Below are positions 35,723 through 44,114 of a stretch of 64,000 nt of DNA, piece after piece (position 1 is the stretch's first letter; the number at the start of each line of letters is the position of its first letter). A program made the position numbers and the translations under genes. The notes beneath the pieces were generated by a model. It did no database searches and was not told where the DNA came from. It saw only the letters and a list, made by a program, of their open reading frames with translations. The stretch lies in the sequence record OM386661.1; one strand, 5' to 3'. Source of the DNA: Escherichia phage vB_EcoM_ESCO45.

Positions 35723-37867
35723 ATGAACAAAGTACAGATTATTAAAAAGAATGGCTCACTCGAAGAACCTGATATCAAAAAAGTTTTAACAGCAGTCACA
35801 AAGTCAGCTAACAGAGTTGGTTATAAAGAGCTTCCACCAGATGTTACCCAAGCTCTTGAGTCAGCATTTATGAGGGTTCTGGTAAAATCCACTAAGCAGA
35901 ATAATTTACTCATTTCAGTAAATGATATTCACAGTATTGTTGAGGGTGCTTTGGCAGAAGTCAACCACGAGATTTATGAGTCTTACTCAACATATAGAAA
36001 TTACCGTAAAGAAGTTGCTCAAAATTGGGATGAACTTTACCAGAAGACCAAAGATACACTCTTCTTAGGTGACAGAGAGAATGCTAACTTTGACAGCAGT
36101 TTAATTTCTACAAAAGGCTCAATTATTCGTGGTTATCTGACTAAAGAAATCTTTAAACAGTACCATTTAACACCAGAGGAACTTGAAGCCATTGAAAAAG
36201 GGTTTATCTATATCCATGATTTAAGAGACCTAATTTTTGGTGGTATCAACTGTTGTCTGTTTGACATTGGTAAAGTCCTGAAAGGTGGCTTTGAAATGTC
36301 TGGCATTGAATATTGTGAACCGAAGTCTGTACTGTCAGCCTTACAGGTTATTGGTGACGTAGTTCTTTCAGCAACTGCACAGCAATTTGGTGGTTTTACT
36401 TTAGCAGAGATTGATAAGGTACTTGTGCCGTATGCTAAGAAGTCTCTACGCTATCATGCTGAGAAAGCAGCATCTTATGGTATTCCTAAAGAACATTACC
36501 ACAATTATGTCATGGAACAGCTACAGATTGAACTGACTCAAGGTTTCCAGTCACTTGAAATGAAACTAAATACTGTACCTTGTAGTCGTGGGGATTTTGC
36601 ATTCACAACTTTGACATTCGGGTTACTTGACTCAGATATGTCTAATGAAGATAACCGACTGCAATACATGATTGCGAGCACTCTCCTAGATGTTCGTATG
36701 AATGGACAAGGTAAGAGCAAGAAGCCTGTTGTATTTCCTAAACTGGTTTATATTTATGACCAGAAGAGACACGATGAGAATATCTGTCAAGGACACCTGT
36801 ACAGTAAAGCCATTGAGTGTTGCTCTAAAGCAATGTATCCAGATTTCTTAAGTGTATCTGGTCATGGTGCTGTAGCAGAGGCTTTTGAGCGTTCTGGTAA
36901 GGTTATTTCACCGATGGGTTGCAGAGCCTTCTTATCTCCATATTTTAACGAGAATGGGGAAGAGTTCTACGTTGGTCGTGCTAACATTGGTGCTGTCTCT
37001 TTGAACTTACCAATGATTTATCAGTACACCAAAGAGAATGGTTTAGATTTCTGGAAAGAGCTTGATAAGTACCTAGAGATGATTCGCAGCTTCCACAAGA
37101 AACGTTACGAAATGATTGCTAATATGCCAGCAAGTTCTAACCCTCTTGCATTTACACAAGGTGGTCTGTATAAAGGTACTAAGAAGCCTACTGACAAGGT
37201 TGGTTGGGATATCGTGAAATCTTTCACAGCCTCTTTTGGGGTTACTGCGCTTGATGAGCTATCTGTTCTTGCTGAGGGTAAACGACTCCATGAAGTTGGA
37301 AGCTGTAGTTTTGCATATGATGTTCTGGCATACATTAACATGAAAACTGAAGAGTTTAAGAACGAAGATGGCTTCTTGTATGCGGTATATGGCACTCCAG
37401 CAGAATCACTTTGTGGAACTCAGTTAAAACAGTTCAGAGATATGTTTGGCGTTATTAAAGGTGTCTCTGACAAGGAATACTTTACAAACAGTTTCCATAT
37501 GAATGTTGCAGCAGATATTACACCATTTGAGAAGCAGGACTTAGAAGAACCCTTCTTCCATATCTGTAGAGGCGGCAGAATCCAGTATGTAAGGGTAGCT
37601 AATCCAGAAAACTTATCAGCACTTAAAAGTTGTATTACAAGGGGGATGTTGAAAGGTTTCTATCAGGGACTTAACTTTGACTTAGCAATCTGTGAACATT
37701 GTGGTAACAGACCAAAGGCTGATGTTGAAGAATGTGAGGTTTGTCATTCACACGATATCTCTGTGATTAACAGGGTGTGCGGGTACTTGTCATTCACAAA
37801 AATTAAAGGTCAGTCTCGAATGAATGACGCTAAGATGGCAGAAATTAAGGATAGGGTTTCTATGTAA
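35723..37867 (+). CDS. nrdD: anaerobic ribonucleoside-triphosphate reductase (class III)
   Basis: 714 aa; N-terminal ATP-cone, C-terminal Zn site CEHCGN...CEVCHS and glycyl-radical motif RVCGYLS. Confidence 0.9.
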   Translation: MNKVQIIKKNGSLEEPDIKKVLTAVTKSANRVGYKELPPDVTQALESAFMRVLVKSTKQNNLLISVNDIHSIVEGALAEVNHEIYESYSTYRNYRKEVAQNWDELYQKTKDTLFLGDRENANFDSSLISTKGSIIRGYLTKEIFKQYHLTPEELEAIEKGFIYIHDLRDLIFGGINCCLFDIGKVLKGGFEMSGIEYCEPKSVLSALQVIGDVVLSATAQQFGGFTLAEIDKVLVPYAKKSLRYHAEKAASYGIPKEHYHNYVMEQLQIELTQGFQSLEMKLNTVPCSRGDFAFTTLTFGLLDSDMSNEDNRLQYMIASTLLDVRMNGQGKSKKPVVFPKLVYIYDQKRHDENICQGHLYSKAIECCSKAMYPDFLSVSGHGAVAEAFERSGKVISPMGCRAFLSPYFNENGEEFYVGRANIGAVSLNLPMIYQYTKENGLDFWKELDKYLEMIRSFHKKRYEMIANMPASSNPLAFTQGGLYKGTKKPTDKVGWDIVKSFTASFGVTALDELSVLAEGKRLHEVGSCSFAYDVLAYINMKTEEFKNEDGFLYAVYGTPAESLCGTQLKQFRDMFGVIKGVSDKEYFTNSFHMNVAADITPFEKQDLEEPFFHICRGGRIQYVRVANPENLSALKSCITRGMLKGFYQGLNFDLAICEHCGNRPKADVEECEVCHSHDISVINRVCGYLSFTKIKGQSRMNDAKMAEIKDRVSM

Positions 37868-38540: not shown

Positions 38541-38798
38541 ATGGGACTCTGGAATAGTTTTAAATCAAAAGTAAAAGCAGCACTAGCTTCATTAGGTATG
38601 CTCACTGGTGTTGATGTGACTCATCTTATGCAGAACTTTAAGATGGAGGAGAAGCTGGCTAATGAGGTTATGAAAAGTATCTATGTAGGCCGTGATAAAG
38701 GTGGTAAGAAACAAGCCCACCGTCCGTCTGGTGCAGCAGCTATTAAACGAGCAGCTAAGAAAGCTCGTAACCATAAACGTAATAAGAAGGCTAAATAA
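38541..38798 (+). CDS. hypothetical protein with highly basic C-terminus
   Basis: 85 aa; C-terminal KRAAKKARNHKRNKKAK. Confidence 0.3.
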   Translation: MGLWNSFKSKVKAALASLGMLTGVDVTHLMQNFKMEEKLANEVMKSIYVGRDKGGKKQAHRPSGAAAIKRAAKKARNHKRNKKAK

Positions 38799-38800
38799 TC

Positions 38801-39121
38801 ATGGGCAAAGTTTATAACACTCGCAAATTACAGATTTTCGTACTGTGTCAGTTTATGGCTAAAGAATACAATTTCTACTATTGTGGCACAGGTTTTATTA
38901 GCGATGATGATGGCTCATACCTCCCATTCAAAGAAGCTGTAAAGCTCTTTAATGAAGAGGAAAGCTCTAAGAAAGATATTGAAAAGGTTAAGCTAACCTA
39001 TAGCAAGAAAGATAAGAAGATTATCTGCCTAGATAACTTTGTAAAAGTTACTGGAGAAGCAAAAGAGTTTATGGATGAGAGTGAGATTTCATTCACAAGC
39101 ATCTTGAAAGTGGCTCAGTAA
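38801..39121 (+). CDS. hypothetical protein
   Basis: 106 aa ORF. Confidence 0.3.
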   Translation: MGKVYNTRKLQIFVLCQFMAKEYNFYYCGTGFISDDDGSYLPFKEAVKLFNEEESSKKDIEKVKLTYSKKDKKIICLDNFVKVTGEAKEFMDESEISFTSILKVAQ

Positions 39122-39165
39122 ACAGATAGTGGTGTTAAGAAATCTGCCGTTGGTGGTGTACACCT

Positions 39166-39333
39166 ATGTGGGATGGTGATAAGCTGAAAGCTGTAGATGG
39201 CTATGGACTCCAGAGTTTTGCAGATGTACTTGACCACCCAGCTTGTGCTTTACGTTTAGTCTTTAGTGACTCTGAGCAGTTTGGTTACACAACTCTTGGC
39301 GATATTCGAAACAATATTGACAAGCAGCTTTAA
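39166..39333 (+). CDS. possible small protein (55 aa)
   Basis: Short ORF ending 14 nt before terminator 39347-39370; weak RBS; below ORF-track cutoff. Confidence 0.25.
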   Translation: MWDGDKLKAVDGYGLQSFADVLDHPACALRLVFSDSEQFGYTTLGDIRNNIDKQL

Positions 39334-39346
39334 AAGTATATGATAA

Positions 39347-39370
39347 GAGGCTCCTACGGGAGCCTTTTTA
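39347..39370 (+). terminator. rho-independent terminator
   Basis: GGCTCC-tacg-GGAGCC followed by TTTTT. Confidence 0.6.
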
Positions 39371-39386: not shown

Positions 39387-39722
39387 ATGAGAATCAAAGA
39401 AATGAACATTAGCGTTGTCCTAGAAGAACGTTGGGAAAACATTAAGAAGCCTGAAGATGGTAAAAAGTTTCTTAACAAAATTTTAGTAGCAGCTAAAGAA
39501 GAACTGACTGGCAAGATTGCAGCAGCAATCACAATAAAGGTTTGTGTAAAAGGTCTCCCAGACAATCACCAATTTGCTCTTGATGAGTTTAAAGAAAGCT
39601 TCTACAATCCAAACAAACAGATGCTTGAAAGTAACTTTGCAGTATCTACAAGTATCGTCCATGACAGAAGCTTTATCCTTTACAAAAATATGAGAGGTGA
39701 GTCATGCAAGCATATTGGATAG
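39387..39722 (+). CDS. hypothetical protein
   Basis: 111 aa ORF after terminator. Confidence 0.35.
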   Translation: MRIKEMNISVVLEERWENIKKPEDGKKFLNKILVAAKEELTGKIAAAITIKVCVKGLPDNHQFALDEFKESFYNPNKQMLESNFAVSTSIVHDRSFILYKNMRGESCKHIG

Positions 39723-39880
39723 AAATTTTGCTGTCACTTGGTAGCGTAGCAATCTTTGTTTACCTTCTTTGCAATTACTATGCAGAGCACAAGAAATGTT
39801 ACTACTGTAATGGAGAAGGCTATACAAGAGCAGGTTGTTGCCCTATGTGTGGCGGCTCTGGTAAAATGTTTAATAAGTAA
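39704..39880 (+). CDS. small membrane-anchored DnaJ-type zinc-finger protein (58 aa)
   Basis: Not in ORF track (<60 aa). RBS GAGGTGA; N-terminal TM helix WIEILLSLGSVAIFVYLL then CYYCNGEG and CPMCGGSG (two CxxCxGxG repeats). Confidence 0.4.
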   Translation: MQAYWIEILLSLGSVAIFVYLLCNYYAEHKKCYYCNGEGYTRAGCCPMCGGSGKMFNK

Positions 39881-39908
39881 TTTAACAGTAAACTAAGAGG
39901 GAAATATT

Positions 39909-42275
39909 ATGCGCATGGTAAACGACCACGCAGAAGTGATTAAGAGTTCAACTTCTTTGGAGACATCTCAAGCACAGATTATAATGACACCTGAAATGTT
40001 CAGTCTCCTGAGTTCTGATGTATATACCTTTAAAGAAAGAGCAGTGATTCGTGAACTATCGTGTAATGCAGTAGATGCTCAGAAAGAAGTTGGAAAAGAG
40101 AACATCCCATTCCATGTGCATTTACCTACTCGATTTGAGCCTTACTTTGAAGTCCGTGACTTTGGAACTGGTTTAACCCATGACAAAGTAATGAATTTGT
40201 ATCTGAACTATGGGGCTTCTACGAAGAATGATTCTAATGACTACATTGGTGCAATGGGTATCGGCTCAAAGTCACCGTTTGCGATTGCTCAGTCATTCAC
40301 AGTGTCTAGCTATGTTGATGGTGTTGTTAATAAATACTCTGTTTACCTTGAGAATGATATCCCTCAAGTAACTAAGCTTACTACTAACCAAACAAATGAA
40401 CCTAATGGATTAGCTGTACGTGTGGCTGTTGCTGACCATCGTATTTCAAAGTTCTTTGAAGAGGCTGGTCACGTATACTCATACTTTGCTGTAAAACCAG
40501 AAAGTAATATTGTATATGATGACGTGTTAGCAGATATGAACGTCATTGCCCGTGAAGAAGGTGTTTATGATGCCATGATTCATAAGCAAAGCTGGCGTTC
40601 CAGTATTAACAGAACAGGGTTTAATGTGGTGATGGGTAATATTGCCTATCCAGTTAATATGGAAGCATTACTTGGCGATGATTTCTTCAAGGTCTTGCCA
40701 GAATTTTTCCGTAGAAGTGTAGACCTTGTAAACATCTACATGCCTATTGGTTCAGTTGCTATTGCAGCTTCTCGTGAAGCATTGCAGATGAATGATACGA
40801 CAAAAAATGTTATCATTGAGGCTACTAAAAAGATAACTGAAGCAATTACAAGGGACGTTATTAAGGGGGTTAATAGCCAACCTACACTTATGGATGCTGC
40901 ACAGGCTTATGCAGAGCTACGCTTGAACTCACGAGAAATGTTTAATGCTGTGTGTCCAAAGCTAGAGTGGGGAGGTGTTAAGCTTGACTCTCTGGAAAAA
41001 GAATTGTTAAACATTCGTCGTGGAATTATCTACGCAGAAGATGGCTCAGTCATCTATGAACGTGACGGCAAAGGTAATATTAAGGTTGATAAGAACGGAA
41101 ACAACATCCCTAAAGTAGATTATCTTTATAGCCCAGTTGCTTATGTTAAGTTTAACTCTTTAGAGAGTAAGATTCGTGCAACAGCACTTTCCTACACTCA
41201 AGAGGCAAGTATGTTCAATATCTTTGGTGCAATGCGTAAAAGCCAAGTTGAACAGTTTTTGTTTGTTATTAATGACCGTCGCAATAAAAACGGTACTGAG
41301 AAGACTGTAGGACGCAATCAAATCTTGCGTGGTGCATGTCGAGACTACGCCAACGAGTCAAATCTGTTTCACAGATACAATGGTATTGTGTTTGTATTCT
41401 CGACTGAAAAAGAGTTAGATGATTTAATCAATCTACACAAACTTGATAAAAGCTTGTTAAAGATTGTGAAAATGTCTGATAAGGAACACCATTACCAGCG
41501 TAAAGAAGCTGTAAGAGGTGTTGTAAAACTCTGGAAAGCAGTTCCGGCAGAAGGTGTAGCCTCCTACAAAGAGGTGTCAGAAGACTTAGACACAATTGAG
41601 GAGCCTCAGCTTTACATTAAGGCAGTTGGTGACACAGTTGATGGTGAATGTTTTTGCTCATCTCCAGAAGATGTAGCTAAGTCAGTTGCTAATGTTACAG
41701 GGAAGACAGTCTATGTTTTCCGAAAAGCAAATTGGAAAAAGATACCAGAAGGCTGGATTGAAGTAGATGAGAAGCTCTTGAACGACAGCTTAACTGATGT
41801 TCATTGGATTAATCATAACAGGTATATGACACGCATCTACATGAATGGTGTTCTTGACCTTACAAGCAGTTGGATTATTGCCAGAAACTTTACATTCAAT
41901 AACAGGAAGATTTCTCGTGGTTATTGCTATTCACGAGATACTAACAAAACTATCTTCCTAGAAGGTAATGAGGATGCTGTAGAGGCAATTTTCGGTAAAA
42001 TCCAGTATGTTGCTGCACCATTTGCATACACTTACACTATTAGTGTCTTGCAAACTCTGAAAGGGTGTCTTGACAATAACACAAAGCTTTACAAGAAAAT
42101 CAGGAAAGCTGGTGACCGTATGGTTATTAAGGTGACAAACTACCTTTCAAAAAGAAAACAAGAAAATTTCTTGCTTTCCCATTTAGATTGGAATAAAGTG
42201 TCACCTATTGAAGTGAGTAAGCTCTTAGGCTTTGATGTGAAGTGTGTTCCAGAAGGTACAACACTTTACGATTAA
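39909..42275 (+). CDS. rIIA: rIIA-like protein (GHKL-type ATPase N-terminal domain)
   Basis: 788 aa; Bergerat-fold motifs IRELSCNAVDAQ (N box), DFGTGLT (G1), GAMGIGSKSPF (G2); size and pairing with downstream rIIB-like gene. Confidence 0.55.
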   Translation: MRMVNDHAEVIKSSTSLETSQAQIIMTPEMFSLLSSDVYTFKERAVIRELSCNAVDAQKEVGKENIPFHVHLPTRFEPYFEVRDFGTGLTHDKVMNLYLNYGASTKNDSNDYIGAMGIGSKSPFAIAQSFTVSSYVDGVVNKYSVYLENDIPQVTKLTTNQTNEPNGLAVRVAVADHRISKFFEEAGHVYSYFAVKPESNIVYDDVLADMNVIAREEGVYDAMIHKQSWRSSINRTGFNVVMGNIAYPVNMEALLGDDFFKVLPEFFRRSVDLVNIYMPIGSVAIAASREALQMNDTTKNVIIEATKKITEAITRDVIKGVNSQPTLMDAAQAYAELRLNSREMFNAVCPKLEWGGVKLDSLEKELLNIRRGIIYAEDGSVIYERDGKGNIKVDKNGNNIPKVDYLYSPVAYVKFNSLESKIRATALSYTQEASMFNIFGAMRKSQVEQFLFVINDRRNKNGTEKTVGRNQILRGACRDYANESNLFHRYNGIVFVFSTEKELDDLINLHKLDKSLLKIVKMSDKEHHYQRKEAVRGVVKLWKAVPAEGVASYKEVSEDLDTIEEPQLYIKAVGDTVDGECFCSSPEDVAKSVANVTGKTVYVFRKANWKKIPEGWIEVDEKLLNDSLTDVHWINHNRYMTRIYMNGVLDLTSSWIIARNFTFNNRKISRGYCYSRDTNKTIFLEGNEDAVEAIFGKIQYVAAPFAYTYTISVLQTLKGCLDNNTKLYKKIRKAGDRMVIKVTNYLSKRKQENFLLSHLDWNKVSPIEVSKLLGFDVKCVPEGTTLYD

Positions 42276-42355: not shown

Positions 42356-43465
42356 ATGACTACTAAAACTAAAGCACAGATTGACGCAGAAATTTACAAA
42401 CTGGTTAAAGAGGGCAAGCTGACTAAAACAGCTATTGCACAGAAATTTAACACCTCAACCCGTTCAGTCGGTCGTGCTGTAGAGCGTCATGAAGCAACCT
42501 TAAAAGGGAATAAAAAGGCAACTTCTACACCAGCTACGAAGACTTTAAAGCAAGTTGCTAAGACCTTTAAAAAGAAAGCTGATAAGCCAGTTAAAAAGGC
42601 TGTTAAAGAGGATGTACAGAAAGCTCCGGTAAATAAACTGCATGAAGCTATGCAGAATGGCAACCAGATTGAGTACATGATTACCGGCGACTCTGTTATC
42701 ATGATTTTCGGTGCAGACTCTGAAATCGTTGAATCTACCCATCCGAACTACAAAGAAATCGTGATGGCTGTTATATCCGGTGAATATAAGAAAGCTTTCG
42801 AACTGATGAACATTCGTAAGTCTATCGAAAACTTCACTCAGGGTGCTATCACCATCAAAGGTGACAAGTTATTCTATGGTGCTGTTGAGATGCGTTCTAC
42901 TCTGGTTGACCGTATTCTTCACATGATGAAGACTGGAGATAAAGGTTTTGAACGACTTGTAATGTTCTTTGAAAAACTGATGGAAAACCCATCTAAAGAC
43001 TCTGTAGAACAACTTTGGGGCTTCGTATCCCACCTTGATGTTGAAATTGATGAAGAAGGTTACATCATTGGTTGGAAGAAAGTATCTACTCGTGAAGGTA
43101 AGCTGGTTGACTCCCGCACCTGCAAAGTACCTAATGATTTGGGTAACATTGTAGAAATGCCACGTTGGATGGTTGATAATGACCGTAACGTGACTTGCTC
43201 TCAAGGTCTTCACGTTGGTGCTTGGGATTATGTTCGTTACTTCTCAGGCGATACAATTCTGAAGGTTCGTGTCCATCCACGAGATGTTGTGTCCGTACCA
43301 ACTGATTACAACGATATGAAGATGCGTTCATCACGTTATGAAGTTGCAGCAATCGTTGATAATCAACGTAAAGTGCTGAAAGAATGGGATGGTAAGACTG
43401 AAGCTTTGCATGTCATCGTTGGCACTGCTGGTGAACTTATCTCTCAGCGTAAACGTGAAATCTAA
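42356..43465 (+). CDS. rIIB: rIIB-like protein
   Basis: 369 aa immediately after rIIA-like gene; C-terminal half resembles rIIB as recalled (GDKLFYGAVEMRS..., CSQGLHVG..., VHPRDVVSVPTDYNDMKMR); not database-verified. Confidence 0.45.
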   Translation: MTTKTKAQIDAEIYKLVKEGKLTKTAIAQKFNTSTRSVGRAVERHEATLKGNKKATSTPATKTLKQVAKTFKKKADKPVKKAVKEDVQKAPVNKLHEAMQNGNQIEYMITGDSVIMIFGADSEIVESTHPNYKEIVMAVISGEYKKAFELMNIRKSIENFTQGAITIKGDKLFYGAVEMRSTLVDRILHMMKTGDKGFERLVMFFEKLMENPSKDSVEQLWGFVSHLDVEIDEEGYIIGWKKVSTREGKLVDSRTCKVPNDLGNIVEMPRWMVDNDRNVTCSQGLHVGAWDYVRYFSGDTILKVRVHPRDVVSVPTDYNDMKMRSSRYEVAAIVDNQRKVLKEWDGKTEALHVIVGTAGELISQRKREI

Positions 43466-43480
43466 TAAGTAATTTCTTAA

Positions 43481-43507
43481 AAGGCTGCTTCGGCGGCCTT
43501 TTTTATT
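43481..43507 (+). terminator. rho-independent terminator after rIIB-like gene
   Basis: AAGGCTGC-ttcg-GCGGCCTT followed by TTTTTATTT. Confidence 0.55.
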
Positions 43508-43565: not shown

Positions 43566-44114
43566 ATGAAGAAATTGATTCTAGGTTTGTGCTTAATGTT
43601 TATAGCACACTTATCTTATGCAGTTGACTGCCCAGAGCTATCAATTAGTCAAAAAGTAAACATGTTAAAAGCTTACCAGTATGGTGAGAATAACATGGGT
43701 AAAGGTTGGGGTATCACTCTAGCTGCTATAGCCTTACAAGAGTCAGAGTTAGGTCTGAAGGTAGAGAATAAAAAGACACACGATTATGGTATTTTCCAGA
43801 ATCACTTGAAGACTGTTGTAAAGCGTAACAAAATTAGTCCTAATGTGGCTAAAAAGAAACTTTTAAAAGACTTTAACTATGCTGCGAAGGAAACTCACAA
43901 AGAGCTTGAGTTTTGGACAAAGGTACATGGTCAGCCAAAGTCAAAGAAGACTTTACAAAAAGTTTTAGCATCTTATAATGCTGGTTATTCGTACAGAATC
44001 CCTAAAGCTAAGAAGTATTCTCAAGATGTCTATAACAATATGAGAGTTATTGCTCAATGTGAATTTGCAACAAACATTTCTAAGGTAAATCATGAAAAAA
44101 TTAAGAAAGTCTGA
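43566..44114 (+). CDS. secreted lytic transglycosylase (SLT domain) with signal peptide
   Basis: 182 aa; signal peptide MKKLILGLCLMFIAHLSYA; SLT motifs ALQESELG (catalytic Glu), YGIFQ, SYNAGYSY. Confidence 0.55.
   Translation: MKKLILGLCLMFIAHLSYAVDCPELSISQKVNMLKAYQYGENNMGKGWGITLAAIALQESELGLKVENKKTHDYGIFQNHLKTVVKRNKISPNVAKKKLLKDFNYAAKETHKELEFWTKVHGQPKSKKTLQKVLASYNAGYSYRIPKAKKYSQDVYNNMRVIAQCEFATNISKVNHEKIKKV

Follow-up and report, generated by a model that had tools for sequence, protein, structure and literature searches.

A conserved 58-residue phage protein with a predicted membrane helix and DnaJ-type zinc knuckle, encoded next to rIIA in Felix O1-like phages

Introduction

The cysteine-rich domain of DnaJ (PF00684; PDB 1EXK) contains four CxxCxGxG repeats, which form two zinc centers. 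The same kind of repeat is found in much smaller proteins. Anti-TRAP (RtpA) of Bacillus, with only 53 amino acids, has a single zinc center made from two CxxCxGxG repeats (PDB 2BX9, 3LCZ, and 3LD0); it is soluble, carries a C-terminal oligomerization helix, and binds Bacillus TRAP. In Arabidopsis, the FtsH5-interacting protein FIP (At5g02160) consists, once the transit peptide is removed, of a transmembrane anchor and a C4 finger of two CxxCxGxG repeats (PMC5915565). The N terminus of FIP lies in the lumen and the finger in the stroma, there is no J-domain, and the protein binds FtsH5 (PMC5915565).

Here, we analyze a gene for a phage protein that has two such repeats and a predicted membrane helix, located in a stretch of 64,000 nucleotides from Escherichia phage vB_EcoM_ESCO45 (OM386661.1), a Felixounavirus genome; this whole stretch is called the window below. 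The gene is already known: it entered GenBank with the Felix O1 genome, belongs to a PHROG family, and carries a DnaJ-like label. In 2010 it was proposed as a possible holin, and a genome-wide knockdown screen of 2025 covered it. Beyond the Felix O1 genome paper (PMC3185647) and the CRISPRi-ART screen (PMC11879866), we found no literature on this protein.

Results and discussion

Reading frame and identity of the gene

The gene reads as an open reading frame on the + strand (positions 39704 to 39880 of the window, stop codon included) that starts with ATG, ends with TAA, and codes for 58 amino acids, with the translation MQAYWIEILLSLGSVAIFVYLLCNYYAEHKKCYYCNGEGYTRAGCCPMCGGSGKMFNK. The features of the locus are as follows.

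39317-39344, + strand: sigma-70-like promoter TTGACA-16-TATGAT, 11 of 12 matches (consensus scan only)
39345-39368, + strand: terminator-like hairpin directly 3' of the promoter (consensus scan only)
39387-39722, + strand: upstream ORF of 111 aa, homolog of Felix O1 ORF130, phrog_4262 (profile match)
39694-39700, + strand: Shine-Dalgarno sequence GAGGTGA, 3 nt 5' of the ATG (read from sequence)
39704-39880, + strand: 58-aa zinc-finger CDS (phrog_3931 match, pN/pS, and orthologs)
39716-39772, + strand: predicted transmembrane helix, codons 5 to 23 (hydropathy, AlphaFold2 helix, and invariant columns)
39797-39862, + strand: predicted zinc-knuckle hairpin CYYCNGEG-x6-CPMCGGSG, codons 32 to 53 (motifs, profile and structure matches)
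39909-42275, + strand: rIIA, 788 aa (phrog_612 match, E = 1e-184)
42356-43465, + strand: rIIB, 369 aa (phrog_609 match, E = 1.8e-88)
43479-43502, + strand: terminator-like hairpin after rIIB (consensus scan)

A previous reading of the window, made from the sequence only, had proposed a 58-aa ORF with a good ribosome-binding site, and both were borne out, with exact coordinates and the GAGGTGA 3 nt from the start. This Shine-Dalgarno sequence falls within the 3' end of the upstream ORF, and a ribosome-binding site is annotated at the equivalent position in phage Mushroom. Among 23 distinct Felixounavirus DNA sequences, pN/pS was 0.097 in the frame of the gene versus 2.0 and 0.99 in the two other frames, and 31 of the 46 variable sites were third codon positions. 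Strong purifying selection acts on the reading frame, and, judged from sequence, 39704-39880 is a genuine conserved gene of the Felix O1-like phages and the Ounavirinae.

The protein matches phrog_3931 along its whole length (E = 5.8e-32, residues 1 to 58 against profile positions 1 to 59 of 59), and the orthologous gene in Felix O1 is ORF131 (Felix01p243, NP_945023.1), annotated as a "hypothetical membrane protein." Other annotated orthologs, all of them phrog_3931, are SUSP1 AVU07_agp080, Sf17 gp109, phiEa21-4 gp117, and RB49 ORF046c, while gp002 of Mushroom is labeled [quoted passage not shown] The sequence-only reading had called the gene unannotated, which is correct for the ORF track it used and for the closest relative, ESCO56, but not for Felix O1, Mushroom, Tribble, SUSP1, Sf17, and many more phages. 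The gene had escaped that reader through the ORF length cutoff, and it was also missed in the annotation of ESCO56. Felixounavirus orthologs show 88 to 95% identity and have the same length, transmembrane helix, and two CxxCxGxG repeats; the window copy carries Y33 and N24 in place of the D33 and K24 of most relatives. We found approximately 213 phage records with a copy at an identity of at least 80%, and a few public genomes contain frameshifted copies.

Gene neighborhood

The phrog_4262 ORF runs 19 nt into the zinc-finger gene, and the identical overlap was found in Mushroom, Tribble, Sf17, PC79-13, SUSP1, and Felix O1, an arrangement that is compatible with translational coupling. No Pfam match was obtained for this upstream ORF, and its AlphaFold2 model is of low confidence (pLDDT of 62); an IF3-C-like fold, to which weak matches on this model pointed, was discarded as not trustworthy. 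On the other side, rIIA starts at 39909, 28 nt past the stop codon of the zinc-finger gene, and is followed by rIIB. The predicted elements at 39317-39368 and 43479-43502 appear to mark the bounds of a unit formed by the ORF130-like gene, the zinc-finger gene, rIIA, and rIIB, and the annotations of Tribble and phiEa21-4 place terminators at the site equivalent to the first of them, after nadV. The ORFs on either side of Felix O1 ORF131, namely ORF130 and ORF1 (rIIA), both peak at 25 min (PMC3185647); the RT-PCR set of that study did not include ORF131 itself. The best reading is that the zinc-finger gene would be coexpressed with rIIA and rIIB.

Family and distribution

The order ORF130-like gene, zinc-finger gene, and rIIA is shared by Felix O1, Mushroom, Tribble, Sf17, PC79-13, SUSP1, and phiEa21-4, and the gene lies directly 5' of rIIA in four genera of the Ounavirinae (Felixounavirus, Mooglevirus, Suspvirus, and Kolesnikvirus). 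A homolog, P0114, encoded in a divergent metagenomic contig, also adjoins rIIA on its upstream side. The architecture of the protein is kept down to approximately 45% identity in these four genera and in the RB49-like Krischvirus. The RB49-like homologs overlap the end of a short upstream ORF in all four contexts examined, annotated or Pfam-matched as an NrdH glutaredoxin in three of them; they precede 55.2 in three of the four and are near rII in none. T4, in which rII is present, has no homolog, and we were unable to find one between T4 nrdH and 55.6. T4 rIIA.1, which occupies the equivalent place upstream of T4 rIIA, was considered as a homolog and rejected, as it is an unrelated soluble protein. 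The placement beside rIIA and rIIB had been regarded as suggestive, and the adjacency does hold in the Ounavirinae, but the RB49-like homologs are far from rII and T4 lacks the gene altogether. The link to rII is not general and concerns only the Ounavirinae, because the RB49-like homologs sit after nrdH instead.

Word-indexed protein searches returned relatives in the Ounavirinae and the RB49-like phages only. The exhaustive HMM search added a few phage copies, the remaining matches being generic CxxCxGxG repeat proteins: of 1186 profile matches at an E value of ≤0.001, most were DnaJ-type repeat proteins, with a predominance of multirepeat CxxCxGxG proteins and of sequences about as long as DnaJ that were matched in two stretches, and the few long matches examined had J-domain-like N termini. 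The architecture had been described as unusual, a description that does not stand, as the sample of profile matches examined also contained other small proteins with an anchor and CxxCxGxG repeats. A scan of 185,579 bacterial and archaeal genomes yielded no relative, and the search of bacterial genomes and metagenome contigs gave none beyond the Ounavirinae and RB49-like lineages. The weaker genome and metagenome matches were either unrelated ORFs or sequences with nothing in common but a CCPxCGGSGK-like stretch, and weak tblastn matches in Vibrio phage K251, Synechococcus S-RIM2, and Xylella Xfas53 turned out to be different proteins. In these searches, the zinc-finger gene is restricted to phages.

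Zinc-finger domain

The motifs CYYCNGEG (residues 32 to 39) and CPMCGGSG (residues 46 to 53) are the only two occurrences of C..C.G.G in the six-frame translation of the window, compared to a mean of 0.11 occurrences in base-shuffled windows. Both repeats are present as the sequence-only reading had described them and would be enough for one predicted zinc center. That reading had set conservation in related phages as a check, and we found the frame, the four motif cysteines, and the four motif glycines to be invariant in an alignment of 12 sequences (Felixounavirus, Mooglevirus, Suspvirus, and RB49-like members); more widely, both motifs were found in all 15 family members scanned and in phiEa21-4 gp117. 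The predicted zinc ligands are C32, C35, C46, and C49. An additional cysteine, C45, is near-invariant, being replaced in the family members P0010, P0059, and P0114.

The family profile matches the cysteine-rich domain of Escherichia coli DnaJ (1EXK) with an E value of 4.6e-10, with similarity to each half of the domain, and also DNAJA3 (2CTT; E = 1.6e-6) and Anti-TRAP (E = 1.8e-3). Anti-TRAP chains are the best PDB structural matches to the AlphaFold2 model, which Foldseek superposes on them with an rmsd of 1.1 to 1.2 Å over 23 to 27 residues at 35 to 40% identity. Scans with the single sequence remained below threshold, both for the DnaJ domain in Pfam (E = 0.034, 14.8 bits versus a cutoff of 32.7) and for the Anti-TRAP family (Pfam, E = 2.9; NCBIfam, 12.2 bits versus a cutoff of 65), and a PADLOC scan gave no match to a defense system. 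No J-domain was matched in Pfam or NCBIfam, and the N-terminal half of the protein is a hydrophobic helix; a protein without a J-domain is not a DnaJ cochaperone, so we discarded a DnaJ/Hsp40 reading.

Membrane helix and topology

The N-terminal membrane helix proposed from the sequence is supported by hydropathy and by the predicted structure. The most hydrophobic window of 19 residues spans residues 5 to 23, with a mean Kyte-Doolittle value of 2.12, and the AlphaFold2 model (pLDDT of 75.7) has a helix across residues 3 to 26. Within this region, the 12-sequence alignment shows no variation at Glu7 and Ser11. A lipoprotein or signal peptide was ruled out, as there is neither a lipobox nor a positive n-region, and C23, which follows a Leu, varies within the family.

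In all 15 family members, Lys and Arg are absent on the N-terminal side of the helix, and the C-terminal part carries from one to six of them. The Felix O1-like and RB49-like copies have KK or KxK straight after the helix, while in the Mooglevirus and Suspvirus copies the segment after the helix is acidic. The positive-inside rule alone would place the predicted finger in the cytoplasm and the N terminus in the periplasm. Some bacterial CxxCxGxG repeat proteins among the profile results carry signal peptides or lipoboxes and are therefore exported, and a periplasmic finger domain is also conceivable for the phage protein.

Proposed role and alternatives

In SUSP1, knockdown of the ortholog AVU07_agp080 by CRISPRi-ART with 7 guides gave a fitness of 1.05 (KS p = 0.11), classified as "Not Fit" (PMC11879866 supplement), and fitness in the laboratory host was not significantly affected (PMC11879866). 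The gene is best explained as an accessory gene of Ounavirinae phages, because this knockdown was "Not Fit" and frameshifted copies occur in public genomes. On balance, we lean toward an accessory, membrane-tethered, protein-binding zinc knuckle that would be expressed with rIIA and rIIB. The helix would insert in the inner membrane so that the short N terminus faces the periplasm and the last 35 residues lie in the cytoplasm, where the four predicted ligands would bind one Zn2+ and fold a small hairpin like that of Anti-TRAP or of one center of the DnaJ cysteine-rich domain. This hairpin could act as a protein-binding knob at the membrane surface, docking on a membrane-associated partner and modulating it while RIIA and RIIB are being produced, and the face of the helix with Glu7 and Ser11 may give an additional contact within the membrane. 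Precedents for DnaJ-type zinc-finger proteins without a J-domain are Anti-TRAP, which binds TRAP, and FIP of plant thylakoids, which binds FtsH5. A "protein-binding adaptor" would be a generic statement of the role, derived by analogy. A more definite version, in which the protein would be a tethered regulator of a specific inner-membrane machine, either as a tether or switch of RIIA/RIIB in the Ounavirinae or as a phage counterpart of FIP that binds FtsH, with the knuckle as a portable targeting module moved between Ounavirinae and RB49-like phages, seems to us unlikely.

The genomic context raises the alternative that the protein is a third partner dedicated to the rII module, with an anchor that would recruit or regulate the peripheral membrane proteins RIIA and RIIB and aid resistance to Rex-like exclusion. 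The gene shares a putative terminator-bounded unit with rIIA and rIIB and lies directly 5' of rIIA in four genera and in the contig encoding P0114; moreover, SUSP1 rIIA and rIIB have been shown to counter lambda RexAB (PMC11879866), and the score of the SUSP1 ortholog is raised like that of rIIA (1.83, "Semi-Fit"), though not significantly (PMC11879866). However, the genomes of the Ounavirinae are collinear, and adjacency to rIIA therefore carries little weight, while the raised score could reflect a polar effect on rIIA. The location of the RB49-like homologs away from rII in the four contexts also argues against such a component, as does T4, which has a working rII system with no homolog, its rIIA.1 being unrelated. 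The proposed link to rIIA/rIIB is weakly supported, and we doubt that the protein is a dedicated rII component. The likeness to FIP raises another alternative, a modulator of the host FtsH protease, or of the HflKC/YidC quality-control complex, that would stabilize phage or host proteins during infection, for which lambda CIII, an inhibitor of FtsH, offers an analogy. The architecture and predicted topology are as in FIP, and the finger would be on the side of the FtsH ATPase and protease domains. A 2026 paper (PMC13039401) reportedly describes a charged residue within a hydrophobic helix as an FtsH recognition signal, and Glu7, conserved in the helix, would be a feature of this kind. This is, nevertheless, an argument from analogy alone, in which FIP is likened to the phage protein in architecture by description; fingers of the DnaJ type are protein-binding modules of a generic kind, and no genetic or contextual tie to FtsH was found, so we consider an FtsH modulator quite unlikely.

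Were the topology reversed, with the N terminus inside and the C terminus outside, the cysteine-rich domain could be a periplasmic thiol-disulfide oxidoreductase or isomerase. Thiol-disulfide activity has been reported for plant membrane DnaJ-like zinc-finger proteins and for the DnaJ zinc-finger domain itself. The near-invariant C45 beside the second CxxC, the overlap of the RB49-like copies with a glutaredoxin-like gene, the acidic segment in Mooglevirus and Suspvirus, and the existence of exported bacterial CxxCxGxG repeat proteins all fit such a role. Nonetheless, a signal anchor needs a positive n-region, and none of the 15 members has an N-terminal Lys or Arg; KK or KxK directly past the helix in the RB49-like and Felix O1-like copies and the replacement of C45 in three members speak against it too, and glutaredoxin is cytoplasmic, so the adjacency, if meaningful, favors a cytoplasmic domain. 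We regard a periplasmic redox protein as improbable, even somewhat more so than an FtsH modulator. A role as the missing Felix O1 holin, or as another lysis-timing protein, would suit a small protein with one transmembrane helix and a mildly basic C terminus, the gene of which adjoins genes labeled "lysis inhibitor" in databases. On the other hand, the gene does not lie beside the endolysin, homologs are present in RB49-like phages, which are related to T4 and presumably carry a T-type holin, and we know of no holin with a zinc finger, as predicted here. Whichard et al. (2010) had included gp131, the product of ORF131 and thus of this gene, among five Felix O1 holin candidates (PMC3185647), and the holin of the Ounavirinae is described as yet to be identified (PMC11879866 supplement). 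Against this, the gene belongs to the rII unit, and the genes on either side of it peak at 25 min and not with the 60-min late genes (PMC3185647), and the SUSP1 knockdown was "Not Fit," whereas that of T4 holin t was "Semi-Fit" by the same method (PMC11879866). A holin is, in our opinion, very unlikely.

As a discovery, the gene carries little weight, and its value is that of a pointer. A strongly conserved 58-residue protein with a predicted anchored knuckle, encoded in the rIIA/rIIB unit and also present in RB49-like phages, offers a cheap and clearly delimited way to study the action of the poorly understood rII proteins at the membrane or, alternatively, to look for a new point of contact between phage and host at the inner membrane.

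Comparison with known small zinc-finger systems

What the phage protein and Anti-TRAP have in common is a single knuckle of two DnaJ-type repeats without a J-domain. Unlike Anti-TRAP, the phage protein has a predicted N-terminal transmembrane helix, and its AlphaFold2 model has no C-terminal helix; the enterobacterial hosts, to our knowledge, have no TRAP. The DnaJ cysteine-rich domain has the same repeat motif, but in the phage protein there are only two repeats and one predicted center instead of four and two. The phage protein also differs from DnaJ in the absence of the J-domain, the G/F region, and the C-terminal substrate-binding domains and in its predicted membrane anchor. The best reading is that FIP, compared here by its published description, would be the closest characterized architecture, its lumen and stroma being the topological equivalents of the periplasm and cytoplasm predicted for the phage protein. 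FIP has been reported from land plants only (PMC5915565), whereas the protein described here comes from phages.

A known gene immediately upstream of rIIA

The 58-aa ORF lies exactly where the sequence-only reading had placed it (39704-39880, + strand), with an ATG start, a TAA stop, and the proposed ribosome-binding site, GAGGTGA, at 39694-39700, 3 nt ahead of the ATG. The N-terminal transmembrane helix claimed for it coincides with the hydrophobicity peak (19-residue window, residues 5 to 23; Kyte-Doolittle mean, 2.12), and in the AlphaFold2 model (mean pLDDT, 75.7) residues 3 to 26 are helical and lead into a small hairpin. Both CxxCxGxG repeats that had been read from it, CYYCNGEG and CPMCGGSG, are present and are the only C..C.G.G matches in the six frames of the 64-kb window, versus a mean of 0.11 in shuffled windows. 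Among 26 Felixounavirus copies (23 distinct DNA sequences), third codon positions account for 31 of the 46 variable sites, and pN/pS is 0.097 in the gene's own frame versus 2.0 and 0.99 in the two others. Judging by the ORF features, the rarity of the motif, and the in-frame pN/pS, this is a selected, presumably translated gene and not a chance ORF.

The 2-kb stretch around the gene matches 251 phage records, the best being Escherichia phage vB_EcoM_ESCO56 (98.1%, full length) and nearly all the others Felix O1-like phages of Escherichia, Salmonella, and Shigella, so the window belongs to a Felixounavirus genome (subfamily Ounavirinae). The gene had been taken as unannotated, but it is known and catalogued: the protein is a full-length match to phrog_3931 (E = 5.8e-32), and the gene is annotated in Felix O1 (ORF131, Felix01p243, NP_945023.1) as a "hypothetical membrane protein," in Mushroom with a DnaJ-like, cysteine-rich domain label, and in Tribble and others as a membrane protein. 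The closest relative, ESCO56, carries it without annotation, and this may explain its apparent novelty. The annotators of phiEa21-4 had earlier recorded the likeness of gp117 to RB49 ORF046.

Distribution and conservation

Copies with at least 80% identity occur in about 213 phage records. More divergent ones (42 to 53%) are found in the Ounavirinae phages Sf17 (Mooglevirus, gp109), PC79-13 and SUSP1 (Suspvirus, agp080 in SUSP1), and phiEa21-4 (Kolesnikvirus, gp117), and RB49-like T4-type phages (Krischvirus) also carry a distant copy, ORF046c (52 aa). When 1.84 billion representatives were searched exhaustively with a profile, a few more small phage copies came up (proteins P0019, P0038, P0059, P0066, P0114, and P0138), and the remaining matches were DnaJ-type proteins and generic proteins with multiple CxxCxGxG repeats; no relatives beyond these phage lineages were found in 185,579 bacterial and archaeal genomes plus metagenome contigs. 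Conservation of the frame and of its cysteines, the check that had been proposed, is borne out by a 12-sequence alignment, in which M1, E7, S11, C32, C35, G37, G39, C46, C49, G51, and G53 are invariant and C45 and K54 nearly so.

C45, just before the second CxxC ("GCCPxC," window 39836-39841, codons 45-46), is kept from Felix O1-like to RB49-like copies and is missing in P0010, P0059, and P0114; phiEa21-4 gp117 (L085 4839-5003) carries "SCCKHC" and "CVCPFC" in place of "GCCPxC." C45 could serve as an extra ligand or as a thiol sensitive to redox state. A few public genomes have a frameshifted or truncated copy: in several Felixounavirus genomes, a 63-aa product has the gene's start and then the +1 frame (window 39756-39896; proteins P0003-P0006 and P0015), the NJ12 form is truncated to 41 aa, and the phiWec172 match is split into two pieces. 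Such copies may reflect either errors in sequencing or genuine loss of a gene that is dispensable.

Gene neighborhood

Around the gene, the window carries nrdD and nrdG, then two small ORFs, the remnant of nadV, the 111-aa ORF (a homolog of Felix O1 ORF130), the 58-aa ORF, rIIA, and rIIB, with the following features around the zinc-finger gene.

38541-38798, small ORF, phrog_4425, in place of prs/nadV
38801-39121, small ORF, phrog_4462/DUF7390, in place of prs/nadV ("HNH endonuclease" in ESCO56)
39166-39333, nadV remnant ORF (C-terminal 55 aa), all that is left of nadV
39317-39368, promoter-like site and terminator-like hairpin, bracketing the ORF130-like, zinc-finger, rIIA, and rIIB genes on the 5' side
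43479-43502, terminator-like hairpin, bracketing the same four genes on the 3' side

Felix O1, SUSP1, Sf17, and phiEa21-4 have prs and nadV, genes of NAD+ salvage, ahead of the ORF130-like gene; both are missing here. A tblastn search with a prs protein gives no match in the 64-kb window, and Felix O1 homology restarts at ~39120, within the last ~215 nt of nadV. The layout of ESCO56 is identical, and FG1m, FM4b, and FO1a, which match much of 38541-39333, may share it. The window nrdD is a single intact 714-aa ORF (35723-37867); that of ESCO56 (L001 8-2468) is annotated as two CDS ~400 nt apart, which could reflect an insertion, intron, or frameshift there. The ORF130-like gene (39387-39722, phrog_4262) has no Pfam, NCBIfam, or PADLOC match and a low-confidence AlphaFold2 model (pLDDT, 62; beta-alpha-beta-alpha-beta); the database homolog P0169 is identical to it in the C-terminal half but has another N-terminal half, a pattern suggestive of intragenic recombination. 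Just 3' of the rIIB terminator, a 182-aa ORF (43566-44114) has a signal-peptide-like N-terminal segment, MKKLILGLCLMFIAHLSYA, and a weak, below-threshold match to SLT transglycosylase (E = 0.001).

The zinc-finger gene is immediately 5' of rIIA in all four Ounavirinae genera covered, and in Felixounavirus, Mooglevirus, and Suspvirus its first 19 nt also lie within the 3' end of the ORF130-like gene; the divergent metagenomic copy P0114 likewise lies ahead of a rIIA homolog. Felix O1 ORF130 and ORF1 (rIIA) are 25-min peak genes by RT-PCR, in a list that does not include ORF131 (PMC3185647). RB49 and three divergent RB49-like contigs show a different arrangement, with the homolog overlapping the stop of a short ORF that precedes it:

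L006 3236-3653
L049 4742-5177
L052 125-554
L051 255-699

In three of these four contexts, annotation or a Pfam match identifies the preceding ORF as the glutaredoxin-like nrdH. What follows the homolog is 55.2 in three contexts and, on the fourth contig, which is short, a fragment that resembles 55.2. The overlap is possibly a second, independent translational coupling, with a partner other than that in Ounavirinae. T4 has rIIA and rIIB and no homolog of the zinc-finger gene: its rIIA.1 protein is soluble and unrelated, and its nrdH is followed by a non-coding gap. The RB49-like placement and the absence from T4 therefore tie rII adjacency to the Ounavirinae genomes, which are collinear, rather than to the protein family.

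Zinc finger and predicted membrane topology

The single-sequence Pfam match to DnaJ_CXXCXGXG is sub-threshold (E = 0.034), but the family profile matches the cysteine-rich domain of E. coli DnaJ (1EXK) with both halves aligned (E = 4.6e-10) and human DNAJA3 (E = 1.6e-6). The domain reading, a membrane-anchored DnaJ-type zinc finger, was right. This small architecture, which had been considered unusual, is not rare. Pfam and NCBIfam find no J-domain in the protein, and we therefore rejected its identity as a DnaJ co-chaperone.

Lys and Arg are absent ahead of the helix in all 15 family members and number one to six after it in every one, which by the positive-inside rule predicts an N-out/C-in topology. 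This would put the finger in the cytoplasm, a compartment in which a Cys4 zinc site is stable; the prediction is weaker for Mooglevirus and Suspvirus because of an acidic post-helix segment. Glu7 and Ser11, one helical turn apart, show no variation from Felix O1-like to RB49-like phages but are not kept in phiEa21-4; their conservation may point to a specific contact where the helix has its outer end.

Possible function

A CRISPRi-ART study screened all SUSP1 genes (PMC11879866). AVU07_agp080 (listed as phrog_3931/Felix01p243) was "Not Fit" (7 guides; fitness, 1.05; KS P = 0.11), and rIIA (agp081) was "Semi-Fit" at 1.83 (PMC11879866 supplements), so the zinc-finger gene is accessory under standard conditions. 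On RexAB-expressing cells, SUSP1 rIIA and rIIB proved necessary in that study (PMC11879866). The operon and the synteny would fit the rII connection that had been suggested, in the form of a dedicated component of the rII module, a possibility that RB49 and T4 contradict. In 2010, the paper on the Felix O1 genome named gp131 as one of five possible holins because of its transmembrane segment (PMC3185647); that role is contradicted by when its neighbors are expressed, by the outcome of the knockdown, and by its location away from the endolysin. A periplasmic thiol-disulfide oxidoreductase of reverse topology would account for the extra cysteine and the glutaredoxin neighbor in RB49 but is contradicted by the charge distribution.

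Most likely, the protein is a zinc knuckle that is tethered to the membrane and binds another protein. Its helix would anchor it in the inner membrane, one zinc would be held by the four motif cysteines, and the hairpin may dock on a membrane-associated partner in the middle phase, while rIIA and rIIB are made. The analysis establishes the gene, its conservation, its architecture, and its dispensability, and from there topology, zinc binding, and an adaptor role are inferred. The closest characterized architecture, a transmembrane anchor plus two CxxCxGxG repeats, is that of Arabidopsis FIP, whose N terminus is lumenal and whose stromal finger binds the membrane protease FtsH5 (PMC5915565); modulation of FtsH by the phage protein is conceivable purely by this analogy. 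Anti-TRAP of Bacillus, matched by the family profile (E = 1.8e-3), provides the top PDB structural matches (rmsd 1.1 to 1.2 Å over 23 to 27 residues, 35 to 40% identity), with 1EXK alongside, and is a precedent for a single zinc center built from two such repeats.
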